A stretch of DNA of 32,113 nucleotides from a virus (taxonomy: Duplodnaviria > Heunggongvirae > Uroviricota > Caudoviricetes). The translations under genes and the position numbers were made by a program. The stretch's first letter is position 1; each line of letters begins with the position of its first letter. Location: IMG/VR virus record IMGVR_UViG_2721755710_000003. One strand, 5' to 3'. The notes beneath the pieces are model-generated. The model saw only the letters and a list, made by a program, of their open reading frames with translations, was not told the origin of the DNA and did no database searches. Of this stretch, positions 2,318 through 26,701 are shown piece after piece.

Positions 2318-2673
2318 TGACAAAGATTCACAAAGTAAAGCTGCACGCAAGATATTTCAACCTTGTGCTGGAGGGAAAAGAAACGCACAGAATTTAGGGG
2401 GATAGCCGTTATCATGTGTATGAAGCACTTGAAATGTATCTGCATCACTTGGGAGTGTGTCAACGGGGAATTTCCATCTATGTGATTTTTTGAGAGCAAT
2501 GCAGTGAAGATAAAGATACTTATTATAAATCAATGTGATAGATGGTGCCTCGCAAACGTAAATGATAGTTTTGAAGCTTCAGGGCTGATGTCGTTCATAA
2601 GACTATGTTTACGCTATCATTTATGATAAAAATAATTAATTTTTATCATAAAGATTCAACAGAGGATATGTTG

Positions 2674-4179
2674 ATGAATCAACTAAAATCAATGAATATC
2701 AATAAGTTACTTTTGGATGTTGATAACCCTCGTTTCCCGACGTCAGCAGAAAATCAGCGTGATGCTATTGCCAAGATGCTTGACTTGCAGTACGACCGCA
2801 TTTATCGCTTGGCTAAAGATATTGCTTCGAAAGGTTTAGATCCGTCTGAAAACATATTAGTTTATCCTAGTGAAGAGGAATCTGGCTTTTTCGTCGTTGC
2901 TGAAGGTAATCGTCGAGTTACAGCCCTTAAACTTTTACACTCTCCTAGACTTGCACCAACAGAAAAAGCACGGAAAGCTTTTGAAAAACTTAAGATTACT
3001 CAGCTTAAAGATATTAATGTTATAGATAACTGCGTTCTTTTTGACGATGATGAATATGAGCATTGGGTCAATTTAAAGCATACTGGTCAAAATGCTGGAG
3101 TTGGAAGAGTTGAATGGACTGCAACAGAAAAAGCACGACATCTGGCTAGGATGGGTAAGCAGTCATTTGGTAATCAAATACTTACATTTATAGAGTTCAA
3201 TACTGATTTATATAAAGAGATAATTGCTAAAAAAAGACTTTTAAAAATCACAAACATCACGCGTCTTTTTGGTGATTTAAAGGTGAGGGATTATTTTAAT
3301 TTAAAAAGCATTAATGGAGTTCTATACTCATATCAGCCTTATGAACGTTTTTGTGTACAATTAAAAAATATTTTAGATGTAATGATTGAAGAGGATGATA
3401 AAGGTAAGGCTTGTTTTACTGTTAATAGGATTCGTAGCCAAGATGACAGGGTTACATTTATTATTGAACAAAAAATAAAACCTTCAGAATCTCTTTTAGA
3501 TAAGCCGTGGAGTTTACTAGAGCCTAAATCTTTTCTTACAGAGAAAAAACATGATTCTATTGACAAAAATGATGCATCTGTGAGTGTAAAGAAAGTAGGT
3601 CTTTCAGAAGGTGATGCCTTAAAGAATACAGGTGTGGATAAACAGGAAGATGATTATTCTAGACATGTAGGCACAGAAGAGAGTAAATCTAAAGTTTCGG
3701 GTACGGAACAGAATAAAAACAAGGGAAAAACTCCTCCTAAAGTAGATCGTAATGTGTTGGTGCCATCTTATGTGAAATTTAATTTTAGAGGGCATAAGAA
3801 ATGCTCTAGAATATTTAATGAGCTTAAGTCGCATCTGACATTTGATAACACCCCTAATGCTATCTCAATATTGTTGAGAATATTTATAGATCTCTCTGTA
3901 AGCACTTTTGTTGAAGAAAACAAGTTACAATTTAAGGAACCACATAGAACTCCAGGGCTTCATGATAAGGTTAAAATGTGTGCTAATTTCCTTCGGGAAA
4001 ATAAAAAGATGACGGGGAGTCAATGTACGGCTGTAATAACTTTCTCGAGCCAAATAACTAAACATGATGGTTCATTGCAGCAGTATGTACATAACCCACA
4101 CTTAATTCCCTCAAAAGAGGCTGTCAACACTGAGTGGGATAACTTTGAGTTGTTATTAAGCCTTATTTGGAGTGAGTGA
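2674..4179 (+). CDS. Accessory protein with an N-terminal ParB/Srx-superfamily domain (DUF262/DGQHR-like), a K/E/S-rich linker and an uncharacterised C-terminal domain
   Basis: The translation has INKLLLDVDNPRF followed by GFFVVAEGNRRVTALKLL, the ParB-type box pattern. The gene is strongly AT-rich. AGAGGA at 2661-2666 sits 7 nt upstream of the ATG at 2674; the ORF is open from 2605, with an alternative ATG at 2668, so the exact start is uncertain. Confidence 0.6.
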   Translation: MNQLKSMNINKLLLDVDNPRFPTSAENQRDAIAKMLDLQYDRIYRLAKDIASKGLDPSENILVYPSEEESGFFVVAEGNRRVTALKLLHSPRLAPTEKARKAFEKLKITQLKDINVIDNCVLFDDDEYEHWVNLKHTGQNAGVGRVEWTATEKARHLARMGKQSFGNQILTFIEFNTDLYKEIIAKKRLLKITNITRLFGDLKVRDYFNLKSINGVLYSYQPYERFCVQLKNILDVMIEEDDKGKACFTVNRIRSQDDRVTFIIEQKIKPSESLLDKPWSLLEPKSFLTEKKHDSIDKNDASVSVKKVGLSEGDALKNTGVDKQEDDYSRHVGTEESKSKVSGTEQNKNKGKTPPKVDRNVLVPSYVKFNFRGHKKCSRIFNELKSHLTFDNTPNAISILLRIFIDLSVSTFVEENKLQFKEPHRTPGLHDKVKMCANFLRENKKMTGSQCTAVITFSSQITKHDGSLQQYVHNPHLIPSKEAVNTEWDNFELLLSLIWSE

Positions 4180-4191
4180 GATTTGTCTACA

Positions 4192-4211
4192 TCTGGACAT
4201 GGATGTCCAGA
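4192..4211. promoter_or_regulatory. Perfect 9-bp inverted repeat with 2-bp spacer (TCTGGACAT gg ATGTCCAGA) in the 69-bp gap between the two cassette genes; candidate operator
   Basis: Read directly from the sequence. It lies about 37 bp upstream of the methyltransferase ATG and just upstream of its GAGAGGGA ribosome-binding site. Confidence 0.4.
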
Positions 4212-4248
4212 AACTGATAAACTACAAAATCAGGAATGAGAGGGATTT

Positions 4249-5133
4249 ATGAAATTTTATACTCCATTAAGATACCCCGGCGGGAAAGGTAAGTTATCTT
4301 ACTTTTTAAAAGATGTTATTGAAAAAAACTCGTTGAATGATGGAGCATATGCAGAACCTTACGCTGGTGGTGCAGGGGTGGCTTTAGAATTATTATTGGA
4401 AGAGTATGTCCGTAAAATCTATATAAATGATGCAGATTTTGCTGTTTATTCTTTTTGGTCATCTGTTGTTAGTGATACTGATGAGCTTTGCCGACTTATT
4501 AGCCGAGCAAAGATAGATATGGATGAATGGTCTTTTCATCGCTATGTTATTTCGAATCCTTCTGAGTTTACTAAGCTTGAGGTTGGCTTTGCTGCGTTTT
4601 TCTTAAATAGAACAAATCGTTCAGGTATTCTCAAGGCGGGGGTTATAGGCGGGAAATCACAAAATGGAAAATGGAAAATGGATGTTCGCTTTAACAGGGC
4701 GGATTTAATTTCAAGAATTGAGAAGATAGCAAATTATAATCAAAGAATAGTAGTAACTAATCTGGATGCTTTGGATTTTCTTGATGCCTTGAATTTTATG
4801 GATAATATGGGAAAGGTGGATAAAAATAAAATTCTTTTGTATTTGGATCCTCCTTACTATATTAAAGGGCAAGGGCTTTACAGGAATTTTTATGAGCATG
4901 ATGACCATGTATTGGTTATGAAGAAACTCACAGAAATTAATTTCCCAAATTGGCTTGTTTCTTATGATAACGCTAAGGAAATTAAAGATATTTATAATGG
5001 ATTTCCGCAAGTTGAGTATTCATTGCAATATACAGCGCATCTCAAAAAATCTGGAGAGGAAGTGATGATTTTTTCTCCTGAAATAATTATTCCTAATACC
5101 CTGAAAGGGGTCTCAATGCCAACTTGCGCCTGA
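4249..5133 (+). CDS. Dam-family (D12 class) N6-adenine DNA methyltransferase, 294 aa
   Basis: Motifs align with E. coli Dam as I recall it: PLRYPGGKGK (Dam LKWAGGK), EPYAGGAGV (Dam EPFVGAGSV), FFLNRTNRSG (Dam FLYLNRYGYNG) and the catalytic LYLDPPYY (DPPY). The gene is AT-rich with a GAGAGGGA ribosome-binding site. Confidence 0.8.
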   Translation: MKFYTPLRYPGGKGKLSYFLKDVIEKNSLNDGAYAEPYAGGAGVALELLLEEYVRKIYINDADFAVYSFWSSVVSDTDELCRLISRAKIDMDEWSFHRYVISNPSEFTKLEVGFAAFFLNRTNRSGILKAGVIGGKSQNGKWKMDVRFNRADLISRIEKIANYNQRIVVTNLDALDFLDALNFMDNMGKVDKNKILLYLDPPYYIKGQGLYRNFYEHDDHVLVMKKLTEINFPNWLVSYDNAKEIKDIYNGFPQVEYSLQYTAHLKKSGEEVMIFSPEIIIPNTLKGVSMPTCA

Positions 5134-5280
5134 TTTTACTTATTTTTTGTCAGTAAGTAATTAGTTTGGTGCATTTATTTGCATTCATTTTTAAATGCCA
5201 GTTCTGGTATCTAACATCAGTGCTGGCGCATTCTAACCATTACTGCTGCACTGCATTTAAAGCCCTGCATGAAGCGGGCG

Positions 5281-10436: not shown

Positions 10437-10648
10437 ATGACGAGTCCCGCACAGCGCCACATGATGCGGGTCTCGGCAGCGATGACCGCGCAGCGGGAAG
10501 CCGCCCCGCTGCGACATGCAACTGTCTATGAGCAGATGCTGGTTAAGCTCGCCGCAGACCAGCGCACACTGAAAGCGATTTACTCAAAAGAGCTGAAGGC
10601 CGCAAAAAAACGCGAACTGCTGCCGTTCTGGTTGCCGTGGGTGAACGG
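10437..10648 (+). pseudogene. M: Terminase small subunit GpM, N-terminal fragment (interrupted by IS21-family insertion)
   Basis: Translation MTSPAQRHMMRVSAAMTAQREAAPLRH...LPFWLPWVNG then runs into IS sequence and stops after 9 unrelated codons. Confidence 0.9.
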
Positions 10649-10733
10649 TGCGTATTACCGTGAAGGAGATCGGTGAGTAACATCGATGGAGATCGGTTCG
10701 TGTCACTTTCACAGAACCGTTTTTAAATTACCT

Positions 10734-11483
10734 TCACTGATCTCCTTCGGTCAACGGAGATTGTATTTTCCGCATTGATTCTCCTTTAAGTTCGATCTTG
10801 ATACTGCCATGAACCAGTCGATCTAGGATGGCATCCGCATGTGTGGAGTCTCCGATCATTTTGTACCAGTTTTCCACCGGCAACTGGCTCACTACGATGA
10901 TTGAGCCTCGTTGGTACATCAGATCCACTATTTCCAGCAGGTCGCTACGCTGTTCTGATGAGAGAGGTTCCAGCCCCCAGTCATCCAGAAGCAGCAGATC
11001 GCTATTATTCAGCCTGGTCAAAAGTTTGCTGTATCTTCCATCAGCATGCCCCTGATAGCACTGTTCCATCAGCGCTTTAAGGCGATAATAGTAGACCTTG
11101 TATCCCTGTCGGCAGGCATTATGACCAAGTGCACATGCCAGGAACGTTTTACCGCTGCCGGTGGCCCCGGTCAGTAAAATATTTTGTTTCAGGGTTAACC
11201 AGTTTCCCTGACTGAGTGAACGGATGAGGGCCCTGTCCAGCCCTCTATTGTTACGATAATCCAGCTTTGATAACTCAGCATTAAGTCTGAACCGTGCATG
11301 TTTGATCAGACGCTCTGCCTTCCTGTTTTCACGGCAGGTTAGTTCTTCTGCTGTCAGTAATGACAGGCGTTCTTCGAAGCCCAGCTCCTGGTATGTGCCC
11401 GGCTGAGCAAGTTGCTTTTTAAGCGCATCACGGAAGCCGGTGAGTTTAAGTGCGGTCAGTTGTTCGTAAAGATGATTCATCAT
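10734..11483 (-). CDS. istB: IS21-family ATP-binding helper protein IstB, 249 aa
   Basis: Walker A LLTGATGSGKTFLACALG and Walker B LLLLDDWG, in the IstB/DnaC-like architecture, immediately downstream of istA. Confidence 0.88.
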   Translation of the reverse strand: MMNHLYEQLTALKLTGFRDALKKQLAQPGTYQELGFEERLSLLTAEELTCRENRKAERLIKHARFRLNAELSKLDYRNNRGLDRALIRSLSQGNWLTLKQNILLTGATGSGKTFLACALGHNACRQGYKVYYYRLKALMEQCYQGHADGRYSKLLTRLNNSDLLLLDDWGLEPLSSEQRSDLLEIVDLMYQRGSIIVVSQLPVENWYKMIGDSTHADAILDRLVHGSIKIELKGESMRKIQSPLTEGDQ

Positions 11484-11494
11484 TGGATCCCGTA

Positions 11495-13036
11495 TCAGTG
11501 GTAATACTCACTGCCGCGTACGTTTTCGTGTTCCATCGTGGATAACAGATCTGGTTTTGGATCCTGAACAGGTTGTTTATCCAGACCTTTTTCCAGGATC
11601 GATTTAATACCTGACAGACGCCATACCTTTGTTTTCAGAGCTCTTGCACATGCTGCATTAAGTCTGGCTTTACTGTATTTTTTATGAAGGTTCAGGAGTC
11701 CAAGGCAGAAGCGATAGCTTTGTTCCGGATGTGGACGAGAGTTCAGTATATGAAGCACATAACTATGAGTTTCACTGCCTATGTGCCCCGCCCATTCCAG
11801 AAGACGCTCTGGCGTCCAGGTGGCATGCTGTCGATGAGCTTCAGGCATGTGCTCGTTGCGGGTACTGTAGCCATAAGTACGCTTGCGCGGGTGCACAGCA
11901 ACCTCCTGCCCCTGATTGAAGAGTCTTACCAGTTCTCCGGAGATCCATGCTTCCAGTTGCTGGCCTAACAGCGAACATGGAACCGAGTAGTAATGTTTGT
12001 CGATTTCCACGTGGTAATCGGCATGAACTCTGACTTTCTTCACCAGGGTGTAACTGTAACTGGCTTCAGGAAGAGGCTTCAGTGCGGGTTTATCAAGCTG
12101 GATGAAGAGTTCTGCACGTGAATAACCCAACTTCTGCATTATTTTGTTATTCAGTCTTTCCAGCAACTCCCGAATGCGCTGATTAAGCGATGCAAGGCTG
12201 TAGAAGATCTCATGCCTGATTCGGGCCATGATCCAGCGTTCAACAACCTGAACGCCAACTTCAGCTTTGGCTTTATCTTTCGGTTTACGTGGCCGCGCAG
12301 GCAAAACTGCGACATTATAATGCTCAAGCATCTGCTGGTAGGTAGGGTTAACGTCAGGATCATACTTACATGCCCTGGATGTGGCGCTTTTCAGATTGTC
12401 CGGAACAACAAGTTCAGGAACGCCACCCAACCACTGGAAGCAGCGAACATGACTCATCACCCAGTCTTCAAGCTGCTGAGACCAGGTGGCCTCTGCCCAT
12501 GTGTAACTTGATGCCCCGAGAACAGCTACGATGACCTGAGCAGTTCTTATTTCTCCGGTCTCAGGGTCGGTAACGCCAACGGTAGGTCCACAGTAATCAA
12601 CGAAAAGTTTTTCGCCAGCTTTATGTACCTGACGCATTGATGGTGAAGTGGTTTTGAGCCATTCACGGTACATCCGGCAGTAATGGTTATAGCTGTAAAA
12701 ACCGCCTGGATTACGCTCACAGTATTCTTCCCAGAGTAGCTGCAGCGTCACGCATTTATTACGCAGTTCCCGGTGTACTGTAGCCCAGTCAGGCAGAGAG
12801 TGCTTCTTCATCTTAACCTGGGTCTGAAGGAACGCATGTTTTAGTTTTGTATCATCCCATCCTGTAGGTAAGGGCCACTGCTTTATGCCAAGTTGAGCCG
12901 CCCGATTAGCATATCTGGATACAACGGAAGGGGAGATTGCAAGACTACGACCAATTTGTCGATGGCTGAGTCCAACACCGTATTTAAGCCTAAGAATTTC
13001 TTTAAGTTTTCTCATAGAAATTGGAACTGTTGGCAT
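11495..13036 (-). CDS. istA: IS21-family transposase IstA (N-terminal HTH, DDE catalytic domain), 513 aa
   Basis: N-terminal HTH region (LSHRQIGRSLAISPSVVSRY), size and pairing with istB. I cannot name the specific IS by eye. Confidence 0.85.
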   Translation of the reverse strand: MPTVPISMRKLKEILRLKYGVGLSHRQIGRSLAISPSVVSRYANRAAQLGIKQWPLPTGWDDTKLKHAFLQTQVKMKKHSLPDWATVHRELRNKCVTLQLLWEEYCERNPGGFYSYNHYCRMYREWLKTTSPSMRQVHKAGEKLFVDYCGPTVGVTDPETGEIRTAQVIVAVLGASSYTWAEATWSQQLEDWVMSHVRCFQWLGGVPELVVPDNLKSATSRACKYDPDVNPTYQQMLEHYNVAVLPARPRKPKDKAKAEVGVQVVERWIMARIRHEIFYSLASLNQRIRELLERLNNKIMQKLGYSRAELFIQLDKPALKPLPEASYSYTLVKKVRVHADYHVEIDKHYYSVPCSLLGQQLEAWISGELVRLFNQGQEVAVHPRKRTYGYSTRNEHMPEAHRQHATWTPERLLEWAGHIGSETHSYVLHILNSRPHPEQSYRFCLGLLNLHKKYSKARLNAACARALKTKVWRLSGIKSILEKGLDKQPVQDPKPDLLSTMEHENVRGSEYYH

Positions 13037-13229
13037 AGGTATCCTTTACCGGAATGGCAAAAGATACAGATCAACACACCTGTGAAGTTCCAATAACATT
13101 GATGGAGATCACTGAATAACAAAATGAGTCAAAAGTGATCTCCATCGATGTTATTCAGCGATCTGTTCAAATGTTATTACCCGATCTCGATGGAAGTTAT
13201 TGAGTGATCTCCTTTCATGAAAATACGCA

Positions 13230-13766
13230 AACGGCGTGCTGGAGCTGGGCAAAGGTGCACAGGATGACATTCTGATGACGGTCATGCTGTGGCGTCTGGA
13301 TACCGGCGATATTGCCGGTGCGCTGGAGATTGCCCGTTATGCCCTGAAGTACGGTCTGACCATGCCGGGTAAACACCGCCGTACCCCGCCGTACATGTTC
13401 ACCGAGGAGGTGGCGCTTGCGGCCATGCGCGCTCACGCTGCCGGTGAGTCTGTGGATACCCGCCTGCTGACGGAGACCCTTGAACTGACCGCCACGGCTG
13501 ACATGCCTGATGAAGTGCGCGCAAAGCTGCACAAAATCACCGGTCTGTTTCTGCGTGACGGTGGTGATGCCGCCGGTGCGCTGGCTCACCTGCAACGTGC
13601 GACACAGCTCGACTGTCAGGCAGGCGTCAAAAAAGAGATTGAACGACTGGAGCGGGAGCTGAAACCGAAGCCGGAGCCGCAGCCCAAAGCGGCCACCCGC
13701 GCCCCGCGTAAGACCCGGAGCGTGACACCGGCAAAACGTGGACGCCCGAAAAAGAAAGCCAGTTAA
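13230..13766 (+). pseudogene. M: Terminase small subunit GpM, C-terminal fragment
   Basis: Translation resumes (N)GVLELGKGAQDDILMTVMLWRLDTGD... exactly at the target duplication. Removing the IS and one AACGG copy restores the continuous WVNGVLELGKG reading frame. Confidence 0.9.
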
Positions 13767-15374: not shown

Positions 15375-15800
15375 ATGAAGAAATTATCCCTTTCACTGAT
15401 GCTGAACGTGTCGCTGGCGCTGATGCTGGCACTGTCCCTGATTTACCCGCAGAGCGTGGCCGTCAGTTTTGTCGCCGCCTGGGCGATTCTGGCGACGGTT
15501 ATCTGTGCGGTTGCCGGTGGTGTCGGCGTGTATGCCACTGAGTATGTGCTGGAACGCTACGGGCGGGAGCTGCCACCGGAATCGCTGGCCGTGAAGATTG
15601 TCACGTCGCTGTTTTTGCAGCCGGTGCCGTGGCGCAGACGGGCAGTAGCTCTGGTGGTGATGGTGGCGACATTTATCTCGCTGGTCGCTGCCGGGTGGAT
15701 TTTTACCGCGCTGATTTATCTCGTGGCATCGGTGTTCTTCCGACTGATACGTACGGCCTGCCGTCAGCGTTTTGAGGGGCGGGAACCATGTCAAGGCTGA
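15375..15800 (+). CDS. lysA: Lysis accessory protein LysA (multi-pass membrane protein), 141 aa
   Basis: Hydrophobic membrane protein after K, with size and position as in P2. Confidence 0.85.
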   Translation: MKKLSLSLMLNVSLALMLALSLIYPQSVAVSFVAAWAILATVICAVAGGVGVYATEYVLERYGRELPPESLAVKIVTSLFLQPVPWRRRAVALVVMVATFISLVAAGWIFTALIYLVASVFFRLIRTACRQRFEGREPCQG

Positions 15801-17304: not shown

Positions 17305-18090
17305 TTATGAGTGATTTTTATTTGATGCTTTGTATTCTAAAACCTTCTTATTGGCGTAAAAGAATTTTGTATATGACAGGAATATAACCAGACCTGAAGT
17401 GAAATAGACGAGGGATAGTATTAATAATGCTTTTTTGTGACTGTTATTATCTTTAATCTCCTGGCTTAACCATTCGGAGTCCTCCTCGTTTAGCTGTAAG
17501 AGCTTATTGCAGGCGATCTCAGGAAGTGTGTCTTTTATAAATACGTTTTGCAGTCTCTTGCAATCGGCAAGGCTATAAGTTTTATTAAATTCAACTGCTT
17601 TATTTTTGAAGGATAAAAGAACTTTGTCACTATAAACATAGTACATCATGTTTTTATATGGTATGCCTGTGGCATCCCTTACTATAACGGATTGTTCGTT
17701 GTGTATGTAACATGCGAGGAGAATGTAAAAAATACTGGCCAGAATTACAATTATTGTTTTAATTATGTGTGGTGGTTTTGTTATGTCACCCCAGATACGA
17801 GTAAGGAAAAAATACGATGTTTTTAGTTTTCCATCAATCAGTCCCTGCTGTATCATTCTCACATTTTCAATGCCTGATACATTGATTCCGTTAATTATTT
17901 TAAATAGTTGAATATCGCGCCACTCGCGGTCAAGTCTTTTTAATTTTTTGTCTGAATATCCAAAATTGAAATAATGTGCAATAAGCCTCATAAGGTTACT
18001 TTTACCAAAGCTAAAAAATGCTAATACTGCAAAGCTACAAAGGAAAAAAACGATTAGCCCCCACACATTAGTCACATTATAGCTGACCAT
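17305..18090 (-). CDS. AT-rich hypothetical membrane protein with three predicted transmembrane helices, 261 aa, antisense to the late operons at the S/V junction (P2 orf30 position)
   Basis: Hydrophobic stretches GLIVFFLCSFAVLAFFSF, IIKTIIVILASIFYILLACYI and ALLILSLVYFTSGLVIFLSY. A strong ribosome-binding site (AAGGAGAG) lies 4 nt upstream of the ATG on the minus strand. Confidence 0.7.
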   Translation of the reverse strand: MVSYNVTNVWGLIVFFLCSFAVLAFFSFGKSNLMRLIAHYFNFGYSDKKLKRLDREWRDIQLFKIINGINVSGIENVRMIQQGLIDGKLKTSYFFLTRIWGDITKPPHIIKTIIVILASIFYILLACYIHNEQSVIVRDATGIPYKNMMYYVYSDKVLLSFKNKAVEFNKTYSLADCKRLQNVFIKDTLPEIACNKLLQLNEEDSEWLSQEIKDNNSHKKALLILSLVYFTSGLVIFLSYTKFFYANKKVLEYKASNKNHS

Positions 18091-22612: not shown

Positions 22613-23140
22613 ATGCAGCATTTAAAGAACATTAAGTCAGGTAATCCAAAAACAAAAGAGCAATATCAGCTAACAAAGAATTTTGATGTTATCTGGTTAT
22701 GGTCCGAAGACGGAAAAAACTGGTATGAGGAAGTGAAGAACTTTCAGCCAGACACAATAAAGATTGTTTACGATGAAAATAATATTATTGTCGCTATCAC
22801 CAGAGATGCTTCAACGCTTAATCCTGAAGGTTTTAGCGTTGTTGAGGTTCCTGATATTACCTCCAACCGACGTGCTGACGACTCAGGTAAATGGATGTTT
22901 AAGGATGGTGCTGTGGTTAAACGGATTTATACGGCAGATGAACAGCAACAACAGGCAGAATCACAAAAGGCCGCGTTACTTTCCGAAGCGGAAAACGTTA
23001 TTCAGCCACTGGAACGCGCTGTCAGGCTGAATATGGCGACGGATGAGGAACGTGCACGACTGGAGTCATGGGAACGTTACAGCGTTCTGGTCAGCCGTGT
23101 GGATCCTGCAAATCCTGAATGGCCGGAAATGCCGCAATAA
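22613..23140 (+). CDS. G: Tail fibre assembly chaperone GpG, 175 aa
   Basis: Follows H, correct size, AT-rich like the H C-terminus. Confidence 0.85.
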
Positions 23141-23174
23141 GTTGTATGACCTCTGTTGTGAACTTACATATCTA

Positions 23175-23215
23175 TGGCACAGAGTAAAGCCTAATCTGAA
23201 GTCCACTCTGTGCCA
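23175..23215. repeat. 11-bp perfect inverted repeat (TGGCACAGAGT ... ACTCTGTGCCA) with a 19-nt loop between convergent G and the Z/fun-position gene
   Basis: Read directly from the sequence. It could be a terminator for either convergent transcript or a protein-binding site; there is no clear U-tract. Confidence 0.5.
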
Positions 23216-23533
23216 AAAGCGGACCTTATAAACAAGAACAATGGTCATATCAGTGTGTTTTGATTGCATAGCTAACGTGCGTCTTCCTGTACAGAATCAT
23301 AAGATGATAGGGCATAGGAGATGATTATTATCGCGTGTTTTAAAAATAGCTTTCTGCATCAAGTGTCACTTGCGAAGAGGTATTGGCGCTATGATTGGCA
23401 TCACTCAGTTCAGATAATATTTTAAATATTTGGTAAATGTTCAGATTACACAATTCGGTCTGCGTCCCGTTAAAATTATCTACTATTAGTTATTACTATG
23501 AGGTGAATGGCAAGTGTTTTCCACTCGCCATTT

Positions 23534-25120
23534 TTATTTTTTTAAAGCCTTTCCGACGTTTAAGGCTTTTGCCAAGCCATAAAATATTTGATATTTCATT
23601 CCTGTTTTTATTTTTGGTGAGATATTTGCGTAACTTCTTTCTCTAAAACACCAACGTATAAACCTATTATTATCTTCGGTTGTTTCTATATAGCATATTA
23701 CATTGAGACCAAAAAGAAACTGAAGGAAGTCATTTGCAGTTGTCATGAATTTTGGTTTTGTTGTGGAAATGGAACTAATATGAGTTTCAAGTTGTTTATA
23801 TGCTAAGAGGTATTCAGCGTAATCAAAAGTATCTTTTCCAGAGAGGAATTCAAAGAACTTTAAAAAAATCTCATAATGTTCACTTCCATAATAAAATGAT
23901 AAATGATCTTTTATTTCTCCAAGTAAATAGTTAGAGTAATCTCTTTGCATGCTAGGACTTTCAAAGTCATCTAGACTAAATTGATTTTTCCCATCATCAC
24001 CGCTGGCGTGTGATTTGATAATTTCGAGCATCCGTAATATATCTCTTGGGCGATAATATGACCAGCGAAGGAAATTAATAAATGATGTGGGGTGGTTATA
24101 ATTATCATGGACGTTGGGTGAATCCCAAGGGAAATAATGGTCCCATGCCTGTCCCTTTTTAAGGGCCATGTCTTGCTGAGTCCTAAGCAGATGATCTAAT
24201 ACCTCAAATAATTGAGAGCTACGGTGGTTAACATATTCTGTCCGCCAGTCCAAGAATACTGAATTATCTCTGATTTTTGCGTTTTGATTTTGTAATCCTA
24301 TGGATTCAAATATATCTGGCCTGATCAAGAGAACGGCCTTCATTCTCCCTTTTCCTCCCTTTATACTTGGGAAGAAATCGTTGTTAATCTCCCAGACTGC
24401 GTGAGCTAATCCTTTTATACATTCTAGATAATCATCGTATGGAATTGAGGAAGGGCGGATATCAATACCATCGATAAATAAAATATGATTTTGAGATAAA
24501 CGTATTTGGCTAAAGGCCTCTTCAAATTTTTTTTGTATATAAAATAAATTTATCTGAAATCTGCTCTCAGAAAAAGATAAAGACTCTCTTTCTTCACCTT
24601 TTAAGGTTGCATGCTTATGAAGTAGTTCGGCTGCAACTTTTGACTCTTGAACAAAACTGAGGGCTTGAATTATTTCTGGTGAAAATGCCTTAAGATAATA
24701 CTCATCTATTGCATCATTAAGTGATGAGAATTTTGAATAATTTAGTAACTTTGAAATTTTCCCTTCTTTATCTAATACTTGTTTTGATATTAATAAATAT
24801 AGAATAACTTTCCATATGCCAGAGAAGTCAGACAAATTTAAATGCTTTTCAGATTTAAGAGTGATAAATTTTTGATATTCTGTCTCTCTTATATATTTAG
24901 TTGTAGCTAGCGTATTGTTAATATTGTTATTTGAGAGATAGATAGAGTATGCGGTTTTACCAGTACCTTTCTCTCCTACAAGAAACGATATATTTGGTTC
25001 ACATAATCTAGATAGGTGATTATCACGTATGAACACTTTGTTAAGTAATTCTTTATTCTCCCTTCTCTTATAATTTTCAGCATCAGCATAGCCAAGAGTT
25101 AGATCTTTGATTGGTATCAT
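23534..25120 (-). CDS. AT-rich P-loop NTPase (Walker A GEKGTGKT, Walker B-like ILFIDGID), 528 aa, antisense to the tail genes in the Z/fun position
   Basis: N-terminal motifs FLVGEKGTGKTAYSIYL and HILFIDGIDIRP. A GAGGT ribosome-binding site precedes the ATG on the minus strand. The roughly 300-aa C-terminal region has no motif I can recognise by eye. Confidence 0.7.
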   Translation of the reverse strand: MIPIKDLTLGYADAENYKRRENKELLNKVFIRDNHLSRLCEPNISFLVGEKGTGKTAYSIYLSNNNINNTLATTKYIRETEYQKFITLKSEKHLNLSDFSGIWKVILYLLISKQVLDKEGKISKLLNYSKFSSLNDAIDEYYLKAFSPEIIQALSFVQESKVAAELLHKHATLKGEERESLSFSESRFQINLFYIQKKFEEAFSQIRLSQNHILFIDGIDIRPSSIPYDDYLECIKGLAHAVWEINNDFFPSIKGGKGRMKAVLLIRPDIFESIGLQNQNAKIRDNSVFLDWRTEYVNHRSSQLFEVLDHLLRTQQDMALKKGQAWDHYFPWDSPNVHDNYNHPTSFINFLRWSYYRPRDILRMLEIIKSHASGDDGKNQFSLDDFESPSMQRDYSNYLLGEIKDHLSFYYGSEHYEIFLKFFEFLSGKDTFDYAEYLLAYKQLETHISSISTTKPKFMTTANDFLQFLFGLNVICYIETTEDNNRFIRWCFRERSYANISPKIKTGMKYQIFYGLAKALNVGKALKK

Positions 25121-25379
25121 TATTACCTCAACTAAAGCAATTGAAAAACATATGGTTATAAAAACATAGCGCTGCTCTGTCGCATATTGTGGATATCAAC
25201 ATATGAAATGTAAAGGAACTATTTGTGGATGAATGAACCGAATCGCTGTAGCTTCGGTAGTCATCTTTCAGACTTGTATAAATGAACAACTTCCGCTTCT
25301 CGCTCAAAGGAAACTGTCAGATTTGATAGCTTTTGGGCTATGTAAACTGTCAGTCGGAAAATGAGTGAGTACAAATCAG

Positions 25380-25510
25380 GGCAGGTGAGCGAATTGCCCG
25401 CCTTTTCTTTACCGGTGGTTGTGCTGTCGATTAGCCAACCGGGACAAATAGCCTGACATCTCCGGCGCAACTGAAAATACCACTCACCCATTAACCACGG
25501 AGTTAAACGG
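25380..25510 (+). promoter_or_regulatory. Expected position of the late promoter for the FI-FII-E-T-U-D operon
   Basis: Position only: intergenic region upstream of FI. No convincing dyad found by eye. Confidence 0.3.
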
Positions 25511-26701
25511 ATGAGTGACTATCATCACGGCGTGCAGGTGCTGGAGATTAACGAGGGCACCCGCGTCATTTCCACCGTATCCACGGCCATTGTCGGCATG
25601 GTCTGCACGGCCAGCGATGCAGATGCGGAAACCTTCCCCCTCAATAAACCTGTGCTGATTACCAATGTGCAGAGCGCAATTTCAAAGGCCGGTAAAAAAG
25701 GCACGCTGGCGGCATCGTTGCAGGCCATCGCTGACCAGTCAAAACCGGTCACCGTTGTCGTGCGCGTGGAAGACGGCACCGGTGATGACGAGGAAACGAA
25801 ACTCGCGCAGACCGTTTCCAATATCATCGGCACCACCGATGAAAACGGTCAGTACACCGGACTAAAAGCCCTGCTGGCGGCGGAGTCGGTAACCGGTGTT
25901 AAACCGCGTATTCTCGGCGTGCCGGGACTGGATACCAAAGAGGTGGCTGTTGCACTGGCATCAGTCTGTCAGAAGCTGCGTGCTTTCGGGTATATCAGCG
26001 CATGGGGCTGTAAAACCATTTCCGAGGTGAAAGCCTATCGTCAGAATTTCAGCCAGCGTGAGCTGATGGTCATCTGGCCGGATTTCCTCGCATGGGATAC
26101 GGTCACCAGTACCACCGCCACCGCGTATGCCACCGCCCGTGCGCTGGGGCTGCGCGCTAAAATCGACCAGGAGCAGGGCTGGCATAAAACGCTGTCCAAT
26201 GTCGGGGTGAACGGTGTTACCGGCATCAGCGCATCTGTATTCTGGGATTTGCAGGAGTCCGGCACCGATGCTGACCTGCTTAACGAGTCAGGCGTCACTA
26301 CGCTGATTCGCCGCGACGGTTTCCGCTTCTGGGGTAACCGTACCTGCTCTGATGACCCGCTGTTCCTCTTTGAAAACTACACCCGCACCGCGCAGGTGCT
26401 GGCCGACACGATGGCTGAGGCGCACATGTGGGCGGTGGACAAGCCCATCACTGCAACGCTGATTCGCGACATCGTTGACGGCATCAATGCCAAATTCCGT
26501 GAGCTGAAAACAAACGGCTATATCGTGGATGCGACCTGCTGGTTCAGCGAAGAATCCAACGATGCGGAAACCCTCAAGGCCGGAAAACTGTATATCGACT
26601 ACGACTATACACCGGTGCCTCCTCTCGAAAACCTGACCCTGCGCCAGCGTATTACCGATAAATACCTGGCAAATCTGGTCACCTCGGTTAACAGCAATTA
26701 A
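25511..26701 (+). CDS. FI: Tail sheath protein GpFI, 396 aa
   Basis: Size and position as in P2. Confidence 0.92.
   Translation: MSDYHHGVQVLEINEGTRVISTVSTAIVGMVCTASDADAETFPLNKPVLITNVQSAISKAGKKGTLAASLQAIADQSKPVTVVVRVEDGTGDDEETKLAQTVSNIIGTTDENGQYTGLKALLAAESVTGVKPRILGVPGLDTKEVAVALASVCQKLRAFGYISAWGCKTISEVKAYRQNFSQRELMVIWPDFLAWDTVTSTTATAYATARALGLRAKIDQEQGWHKTLSNVGVNGVTGISASVFWDLQESGTDADLLNESGVTTLIRRDGFRFWGNRTCSDDPLFLFENYTRTAQVLADTMAEAHMWAVDKPITATLIRDIVDGINAKFRELKTNGYIVDATCWFSEESNDAETLKAGKLYIDYDYTPVPPLENLTLRQRITDKYLANLVTSVNSN

Follow-up and report, generated by a model that had tools for sequence, protein, structure and literature searches.

An Escherichia coli P2 prophage carries the canonical fun(Z) gene, whose product is predicted to join an AAA+ ATPase core with a helical lid and a winged helix

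The lysogenic-conversion gene fun(Z) of phage P2 is entered in the P2 record with the note 'cloned gene blocks growth of T5; nonessential; lysogenic conversion; confers sensitivity to FUdR' (5-fluorodeoxyuridine). When expressed from the prophage, fun(Z) blocks T5 as well as the majority of phages whose genomes exceed ~60 kb (BASEL, PMC8594841, PMC11990801), and its targets comprise T5-like, T-even, rV5-like, Felix O1-like, Kuravirus and N4-like phages (PMC8594841, PMC11990801). Inhibition of Kuravirus and of a Gamaleyavirus was found later. The slot between genes G and FI that holds fun(Z) has been described as a second defence hotspot of P2 (PMC9519451), and the passage on fun in PMC8987985, which cites Nilsson et al. 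2004, describes the gene as lying between inverted repeats through which it can be exchanged. No later mechanistic paper on fun(Z) was found in the literature searched, which did not cover subscription journals. Here we analysed a 32,113-nucleotide virus record (IMGVR_UViG_2721755710_000003; the window hereafter) that carries a P-loop NTPase gene in the same slot, and we compare this gene and its predicted product with P2 fun(Z) and with more distant ATPases.

The window represents a P2 prophage, arranged in prophage order, that matches E. coli D5, where it is integrated next to yegQ. Its late genes are 99.6-99.9% identical to those of P2, and gene A is 96.4% identical. The interval 23141-25510 is the exact gap between the stop of the tail-fibre-assembly gene G (22613..23140, plus strand) and the start of the tail-sheath gene FI (25511..26701, plus strand), and it contains a 528-residue open reading frame (ORF) on the minus strand, beginning with ATG (Table 1). 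An open frame of 1587 nt in 33%-GC DNA is far more than chance would produce. A first-pass annotation made from the DNA letters had read this interval as a single AT-rich gene for a P-loop NTPase, antisense to the late operons and in the Z/fun slot of P2. This description agrees with the position, the Walker motifs and the P2 annotation, and also with the base composition, since the coding sequence (CDS) has 32.8% GC compared with 48.9% for H and G and 56.1% for FI to T.

The same annotation had left it undecided by eye whether the gene was the canonical fun allele or another single-gene system. Alignment to the P2 product settled this question. The protein is identical to P2 Fun(Z) (NP_046777.1) at 527 of 528 residues, the sole change being the conservative A519S (nt 23566), and the CDS differs from that of P2 by one nucleotide in 1587. 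The interval as a whole aligns with 15275-17651 of P2 (NC_001895/AF063097), annotated as fun(Z), at 99.7% DNA identity. It shows one further difference only: between the hairpin of the V-operon terminator and the fun(Z) stop, the T-tract has lost 7 nt (TTTTTGT). Because the identity extends over the protein and the whole interval, the gene is the canonical fun(Z) lysogenic-conversion gene of P2, in its native cassette within a P2 prophage of E. coli. Had the slot held another, novel single-gene system, this would have been in keeping with the known exchange at this hotspot, where Wphi, HQ103, P2-EC46 and others carry other cargo, and with the other hotspot of the same prophage, which has already been swapped (PD-Lambda-5 for tin/old). 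Near-identity with P2 fun(Z) throughout the cassette leaves practically no chance for such a system and refutes a non-canonical allele. The novelty implied in the first-pass annotation is therefore lost, as high identity to an already characterised protein was what it had itself named as grounds for giving the idea up.

The cassette boundaries were located with the P2-EC46 record (AJ512680), in which left and right inverted repeats of ~100 nt are annotated around a different Z-region cargo. An ungapped repeat search of the window did not find the Z-region inverted repeats; they were recovered with the P2-EC46 repeats and a gapped alignment, in which the inner ~32 nt of the left repeat (about 23193-23224) form an inverted pairing of 75% identity with 25292-25323. 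The inverted core is accordingly weak, with an E value of 0.02 within the window. The repeats delimit an exchangeable unit of ~23225-25291 with 33.5% GC, in agreement with the account of fun in PMC8987985, and for other P2-like phages (Wphi, HQ103, L-413C, fiAA91-ss and others) the match to the interval is confined to the flanks, outside the cassette. Among complete E. coli genomes the fun(Z) cassette is rare: it was found in 13 of 5,426, always as a single copy and at least 99.5% identical, and the PGAP name of the gene in these 13 genomes is P-loop ATPase of the Sll1717 family. The TTTTTGT deletion lies at window 23530/23531, in the tract that serves as the tail of the V-operon terminator and that also precedes the fun(Z) stop codon as a spacer. 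It is common to both 100% cassette matches, E. coli D5 and elppa10. The other 11 of the 13 genomes have a cassette of P2 length (2074 nt compared with 2067).

Since this is the same gene as P2 fun(Z), the T5 exclusion, the FUdR sensitivity and the broad defence against large phages should apply here as well; the T5 block and the FUdR sensitivity are expected to hold for the A519S copy. The exclusion function, one of the candidate roles that had been proposed, is already published for the P2 allele, in the P2 record note and in the BASEL phenotyping. It is ordinary for a P2 prophage to hold the fun(Z) of P2 itself, and the gene, the slot and the phenotype have all been described. The value that remains lies in the mechanism of fun(Z) and in an annotation gap for a classical defence gene.

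This gap became apparent when the single protein was compared with annotation libraries. NCBIfam NF047389 ('P-loop ATPase, Sll1717 family') matched with 210.6 bits against a cutoff of 75, covering residues 9-520 and the complete model (1-454/454), and among annotation resources only NCBIfam names the Fun(Z) family. PHROGs places the protein in phrog_13260 with the label unknown function. Pfam returned no family at its cutoff (best E value 0.067), and PADLOC-DB v2.0.0 gave no significant match, its sole match being PDC-M28C (E 0.0033) over the P-loop region at residues 17-74. Neither Pfam nor PADLOC detected a nuclease or toxin domain in Fun(Z), and no transmembrane segment was found, with a maximum 19-residue hydropathy of 1.24. 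A sequence search of the PDB with the single protein returned nothing significant. Because neither library recognises fun(Z), defence surveys that use Pfam and PADLOC miss the gene together with the 688 clusters of its family.

The homologues form 1804 clusters at 90% identity (E<=1e-3) and 688 at 50% identity. Nearly all of them are standalone proteins of ~530 residues with the same architecture, and conservation is unusually high: Pseudomonas, Shewanella, Methylobacter and Thermodesulfobacteriota have homologues above 60% identity. Residue conservation was assessed on 55 diverse full-length members with 25-63% identity. A profile of these members searched against the PDB gave only echoes of the Walker motifs (E >= 0.29). 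Thirteen positions are invariant: K51, G52, G54, K55, T56, D217, D220, N246, R267, N278, Y329, F347 and R359. Nearly all lie in the ATPase core (K51 to N278) or in the lid (Y329, F347 and R359). The Walker A (GEKGTGKT) and the Walker B-like box (ILFIDGID) pointed out in the first reading were confirmed at residues 49-56 and 213-220. The Walker B is of a DGxD form, in which G218 stands at the position usually taken by the catalytic Glu, as seen in an alignment to the Walker B of ClpA ('ILFIDEI'). The lack of the canonical catalytic Glu speaks for a switch and against an enzyme of high turnover.

In the large C-terminal region the first reading had recognised no motifs, but the region does hold conserved LLIRPD, QNQN (277-280) and RPRD motifs and a winged-helix domain. 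R267 in LLIRPD would occupy a sensor-1-like position, and R359 in RPRD is a plausible candidate for the sensor-2 arginine. Among the 55 members, the C-terminal third contains no invariant acidic, His or Lys residue, which argues against a hidden enzyme domain there. A nuclease or other enzymatic C-terminal effector was rejected for the same lack of invariant catalytic-type residues.

We modelled the structure with AlphaFold2 from an alignment of 44 sequences (mean pLDDT 73.7, pTM 0.73). In the predicted structure, an AAA+ base is followed by a helical lid (~residues 296-375) and a C-terminal winged helix. The strands of the nucleotide-binding domain (NBD) are predicted at 46-56 (beta-1 and P-loop), 70-76 (beta-2), 211-217 (Walker B strand) and 260-266 (beta-4). 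When the full model was compared with the PDB by Foldseek, the best matches were Orc4 (E 1.2e-4), Cdc6/Orc1 (target TM 0.49) and SSO1545, followed by NB-ARC modules. Relatives of Fun(Z) have sub-threshold matches to ORC-CDC6-like (PF24389) and AAA_16, and a weak alignment to Cdc6 covers the Walker A region. The protein thus very probably has the fold of an ORC/Cdc6-, archaeal-AAA+- and STAND-type module, consisting of NBD, helical lid and winged helix. A helical insert of ~125 residues is both the least conserved and the least confidently modelled part, with a mean column conservation of 0.34 compared with 0.52-0.57 in the ATPase core. Judged from the topology of this poorly modelled region, the insert would stand in the position of the initiator-specific helical motif, which in initiators lies between alpha-2 and beta-3 and contacts DNA. 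Neither Pfam nor the model revealed a repeat sensor or an enzymatic effector domain, and the protein ends after the winged helix.

Comparison with the defence ATPase families suggested by the first-pass annotation had a mixed outcome: a likeness to AAA+ and STAND proteins is supported at the level of the fold, and KAP and AbiJ/AbiL-like proteins found no support. A KAP NTPase was rejected, as Pfam gave no KAP hit and there is no transmembrane insert, and PADLOC gave no match to AbiJ/AbiL-like proteins. An OLD/ABC-type ATPase (P2 Old, PARIS AriA, Gabija GajA) was also rejected, because the fold is AAA+ rather than ABC and there are no TOPRIM, AAA_21 or AAA_15 hits.

Genomic context and domain fusions were inspected for further information on the module. 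In all seven contexts examined, namely the P2 prophage, a Shewanella chromosome, a Pseudomonas integrase/IS island, a Proteus prophage, Salmonella conjugative tra genes and two metagenome contigs, the gene stands alone with no shared neighbour. In Proteus, it lies at the integrase-proximal edge of a siphovirus-like prophage. A two-gene system was discarded, as no neighbour is conserved in any of these contexts. The closest homologue outside E. coli is the Salmonella protein P0001 (L010/L011, 5001-6587), which is 91% identical to Fun(Z) and is encoded outside any P2 prophage, by a lone antisense gene amid a conjugative-transfer cluster (TraG/TraU/TraC/TrbI). The same cassette-like cargo therefore moves between phages and conjugative elements. 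Fusions are rare. C-terminal cold-shock domains follow directly after the winged helix in P0123 and P0125, an Arg/Lys/Gly-rich tail takes the same place in P0154, and in P0202 an N-terminal Ser/Thr kinase is joined to the ATPase and lid only.

As the best overall explanation, we tentatively favour a canonical Fun(Z) that acts as an ATP-dependent switch assembling on nucleic acid and that is itself the effector; taken alone, the mechanism of a switch on nucleic acid is possible and held with considerable doubt. On infection, ATP-bound protomers would gather into an assembly on nucleic acid, DNA being the likeliest, with the winged helix and the insert providing the contacts by analogy with ORC/Cdc6, MuB and TnsC. 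The assembly would obstruct replication or expression, and the infection would abort. The variable insert would recognise the trigger, which may be some disturbance in the metabolism of DNA or nucleotides that is common to large lytic phages and that is mimicked by thymidylate starvation under FUdR. The cold-shock domains and the basic tail, appended in independent family members, suggest that Fun(Z) itself could contact nucleic acid. The invariant residues of the ATPase site, the lack of a recognisable catalytic effector and the lone occurrence of the gene also speak for this explanation.

Several observations weigh against this explanation. Nucleic-acid binding, oligomerisation and ATP hydrolysis by Fun(Z) are steps that we infer, and the nature of the trigger is likewise surmised from the FUdR sensitivity, a phenotype of the 1960s era, and the preference for large phages. 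The model is weak at residues 123-183 and 280-294, a range that includes the insert assigned to sensing. The fold matches reach the superfamily level only, with 10-14% identity, and no Pfam AAA+, ORC or STAND model matches Fun(Z) at its cutoff. The winged helices of STAND proteins do not bind DNA but pack proteins against each other, and a winged-helix domain alone therefore does not imply contact with DNA. The cold-shock matches (25.5 and 23.2) fall just below the Pfam gathering score of 27; RNP-like motifs are visible in the tails of P0123 and P0125, and their BLAST similarity to CspA is weak. Moreover, the kinase-fused P0202 suggests that the same module is also able to switch a separate effector.

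The kinase fusion is also among the observations that a STAND-type sensor would account for, since it has the effector-plus-NBD layout typical of STAND proteins. According to this rival explanation, the insert would recognise a specific phage protein, and an ATP-bound oligomer would then inactivate an essential protein of phage or host by sequestering it, without involving nucleic acid, much as P2 Tin poisons T4 gp32. The insert is the least conserved part of the protein, as expected of a fast-evolving sensor, and family members show sub-threshold matches to nSTAND3 and NPHP3_N. The hhhhDGxD Walker B and the beta-4 strand ending in R-P may also resemble the NACHT signatures 'DGxDE' and 'TxRP'. 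However, Fun(Z) lacks the repeat sensor and the effector domain that are present in nearly all characterised STAND defence proteins, and in fold it matches ORC/Cdc6, archaeal AAA+ proteins and TnsC better than it does STAND proteins. The targeted phages belong to unrelated families, which is hard to reconcile with one shared protein ligand, and FUdR sensitivity arises without any phage protein. The appended cold-shock domains and basic tail point to nucleic acid. We consider a STAND-type sensor somewhat unlikely.

A second rival explanation is a drain of energy or nucleotides, in which Fun(Z), once triggered, would hydrolyse ATP or dNTPs without regulation and so starve large phages with a high demand for replication. 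The NTPase site is the only invariant chemistry of the family and no other effector is detectable, and both the preferential effect on large-genome phages and the sensitivity to FUdR, a nucleotide-pool poison, would be compatible with such a drain. However, AAA+/ORC-type switches are established as slow ATPases, the Walker B of Fun(Z) has G218 in place of the canonical catalytic Glu, and a simple hydrolase would not need a conserved winged helix and lid. These features make a drain very unlikely.

Returning to the switch on nucleic acid, its strongest form would make Fun(Z) a new mechanistic class of abortive-infection protein, an effector-less ORC/Cdc6-like ATPase that is sensor and effector at once and that polymerises on DNA when replication or the nucleotide pool is disturbed in some generic way, instead of recognising a particular phage protein. 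We regard this form as unlikely. If true, such a class would account for both the broad range of large phages affected and the FUdR-sensitivity phenotype, and FUdR would provide a phage-free trigger for studying Fun(Z). The structural reading of an ORC/Cdc6-like ATPase with lid, winged helix and variable insert makes the question of mechanism addressable by specific mutants and biochemistry.

The coordinates of the features are compiled in Table 1. A consensus scan of the region counted 13 promoter-like sites compared with 9.2 +/- 2.8 in shuffled sequences, which is not above expectation. The annotated V-operon terminator was missed by a generic terminator scan.

Table 1. Features of the fun(Z) interval, followed by other features of the prophage (window coordinates)
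Feature	Coordinates	Strand	Basis
fun(Z) CDS, 528 aa, 61.9 kDa, soluble P-loop ATPase, Sll1717 family	23534..25120	-	ORF, P2 identity, NF047389, phrog_13260
Shine-Dalgarno-like GAGG, 5 nt 5' of ATG	25126..25129	-	read from sequence
Promoter-like TTTACA-17-CACAAT, ~65 nt 5' of ATG; weak candidate	25186..25214	-	consensus scan, 9/12 matches
Walker A / P-loop GEKGTGKT, residues 49-56	24953..24976	-	K51, G52, G54, K55, T56 invariant
Helical insertion, ~residues 79-205, between beta-2 and Walker B strand (predicted)	24506..24886	-	model secondary structure, pLDDT
Walker B ILFIDGID, residues 213-220	24461..24484	-	D217, D220 invariant
LLIRPD, residues 264-269, end of beta-4	24314..24331	-	R267 invariant, D269 nearly; strand 260-266 in model
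RPRD, residues 357-360, start of lid helix	24041..24052	-	R359 invariant, P358 and D360 nearly; helix 358-372 in model
C-terminal helical linker and winged-helix domain, residues 375-528 (predicted)	23537..23998	-	
Putative rho-independent V-operon terminator, GGCAAGTG...CACTCGCC then T-tract, adjoining fun(Z) stop	23505..23530	+	P2 annotation 15639-15666; visible hairpin
Left inverted repeat of Z-region cassette, overlapping gene G 3' end	23113..23224	.	92% over 113 nt to annotated P2-EC46 repeat
Right inverted repeat of Z-region cassette	25294..25378	.	90.6% over 85 nt to annotated P2-EC46 repeat
PD-Lambda-5 A, 524 aa	2605-4179	+	PADLOC, E 1.7e-167
PD-Lambda-5 B, 294 aa, D12-class N6-adenine methyltransferase	4249-5133	+	E 1.4e-121
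ISEc12 (IS21-family), splitting terminase small-subunit gene M	10649-13229		D5 annotation
ISEc12 istB, 249 aa	10734-11483	-	
ISEc12 istA, 513 aa	11495-13036	-	
ISEc12 target duplication, 5-bp AACGG	10644-10648 and 13230-13234		
AT-rich antisense block, P2 orf30	~17305-18090	-	34% GC

Outside the fun(Z) interval, the prophage is a mosaic. In the segment 1-2398 of the window, the first ~330 nt have no blastn match to P2. At the other hotspot (2399-5280), with gene A on one side and the portal gene Q on the other, the PD-Lambda-5 gene pair stands in the place of orf91/tin/old, and this block has 35% GC and no match to P2. The AT-rich antisense block between S and V corresponds to the nonessential P2 orf30, whose position is another variable slot of P2-like phages according to the literature. 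Because ISEc12 splits gene M, the prophage is probably unable to package DNA; both defence cargos have been kept.

Among known ATPases, the archaeal AAA+ proteins of the 'Arch_ATPase' type, SSO1545 (2fna), PAB2304 (2qen) and MJECL15 (3h92), have the same three-part layout as Fun(Z) and are likewise standalone proteins without an effector domain. Their sequence identity to Fun(Z) is 12-15%, Fun(Z) has no PF01637 hit, and its length exceeds theirs by ~180 residues, largely owing to the helical insert. At the sequence level, Fun(Z) is not a member of the Cdc6/Orc1 proteins and ORC subunits. Its Walker B reads DGxD instead of DE, and its insert is several times larger than the initiator-specific motif of Cdc6/Orc1. 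ATPases of the TnsC/MuB/IstB type have no winged helix at the C-terminus and work together with a transposase, whereas Fun(Z) has no conserved partner; likewise, BrxC of BREX works within a six-gene system. The STAND defence NTPases (Avs3/Avs5 and bacterial NLR-like proteins) resemble Fun(Z) in being single-gene systems on mobile elements. However, the Avs type is defined by a repeat sensor together with a nuclease, SIR2 or other effector, neither of which Fun(Z) has. The closest system remains P2 Fun(Z) itself. The copy described here differs by A519S and by the 7-nt deletion in the T-tract just 3' of the stop codon, and its prophage has PD-Lambda-5 where P2 has tin/old, with ISEc12 inserted into gene M. 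In all other respects compared, this copy is the same gene, with the same length, position, orientation, flanking repeats and adjacent regulatory sites.

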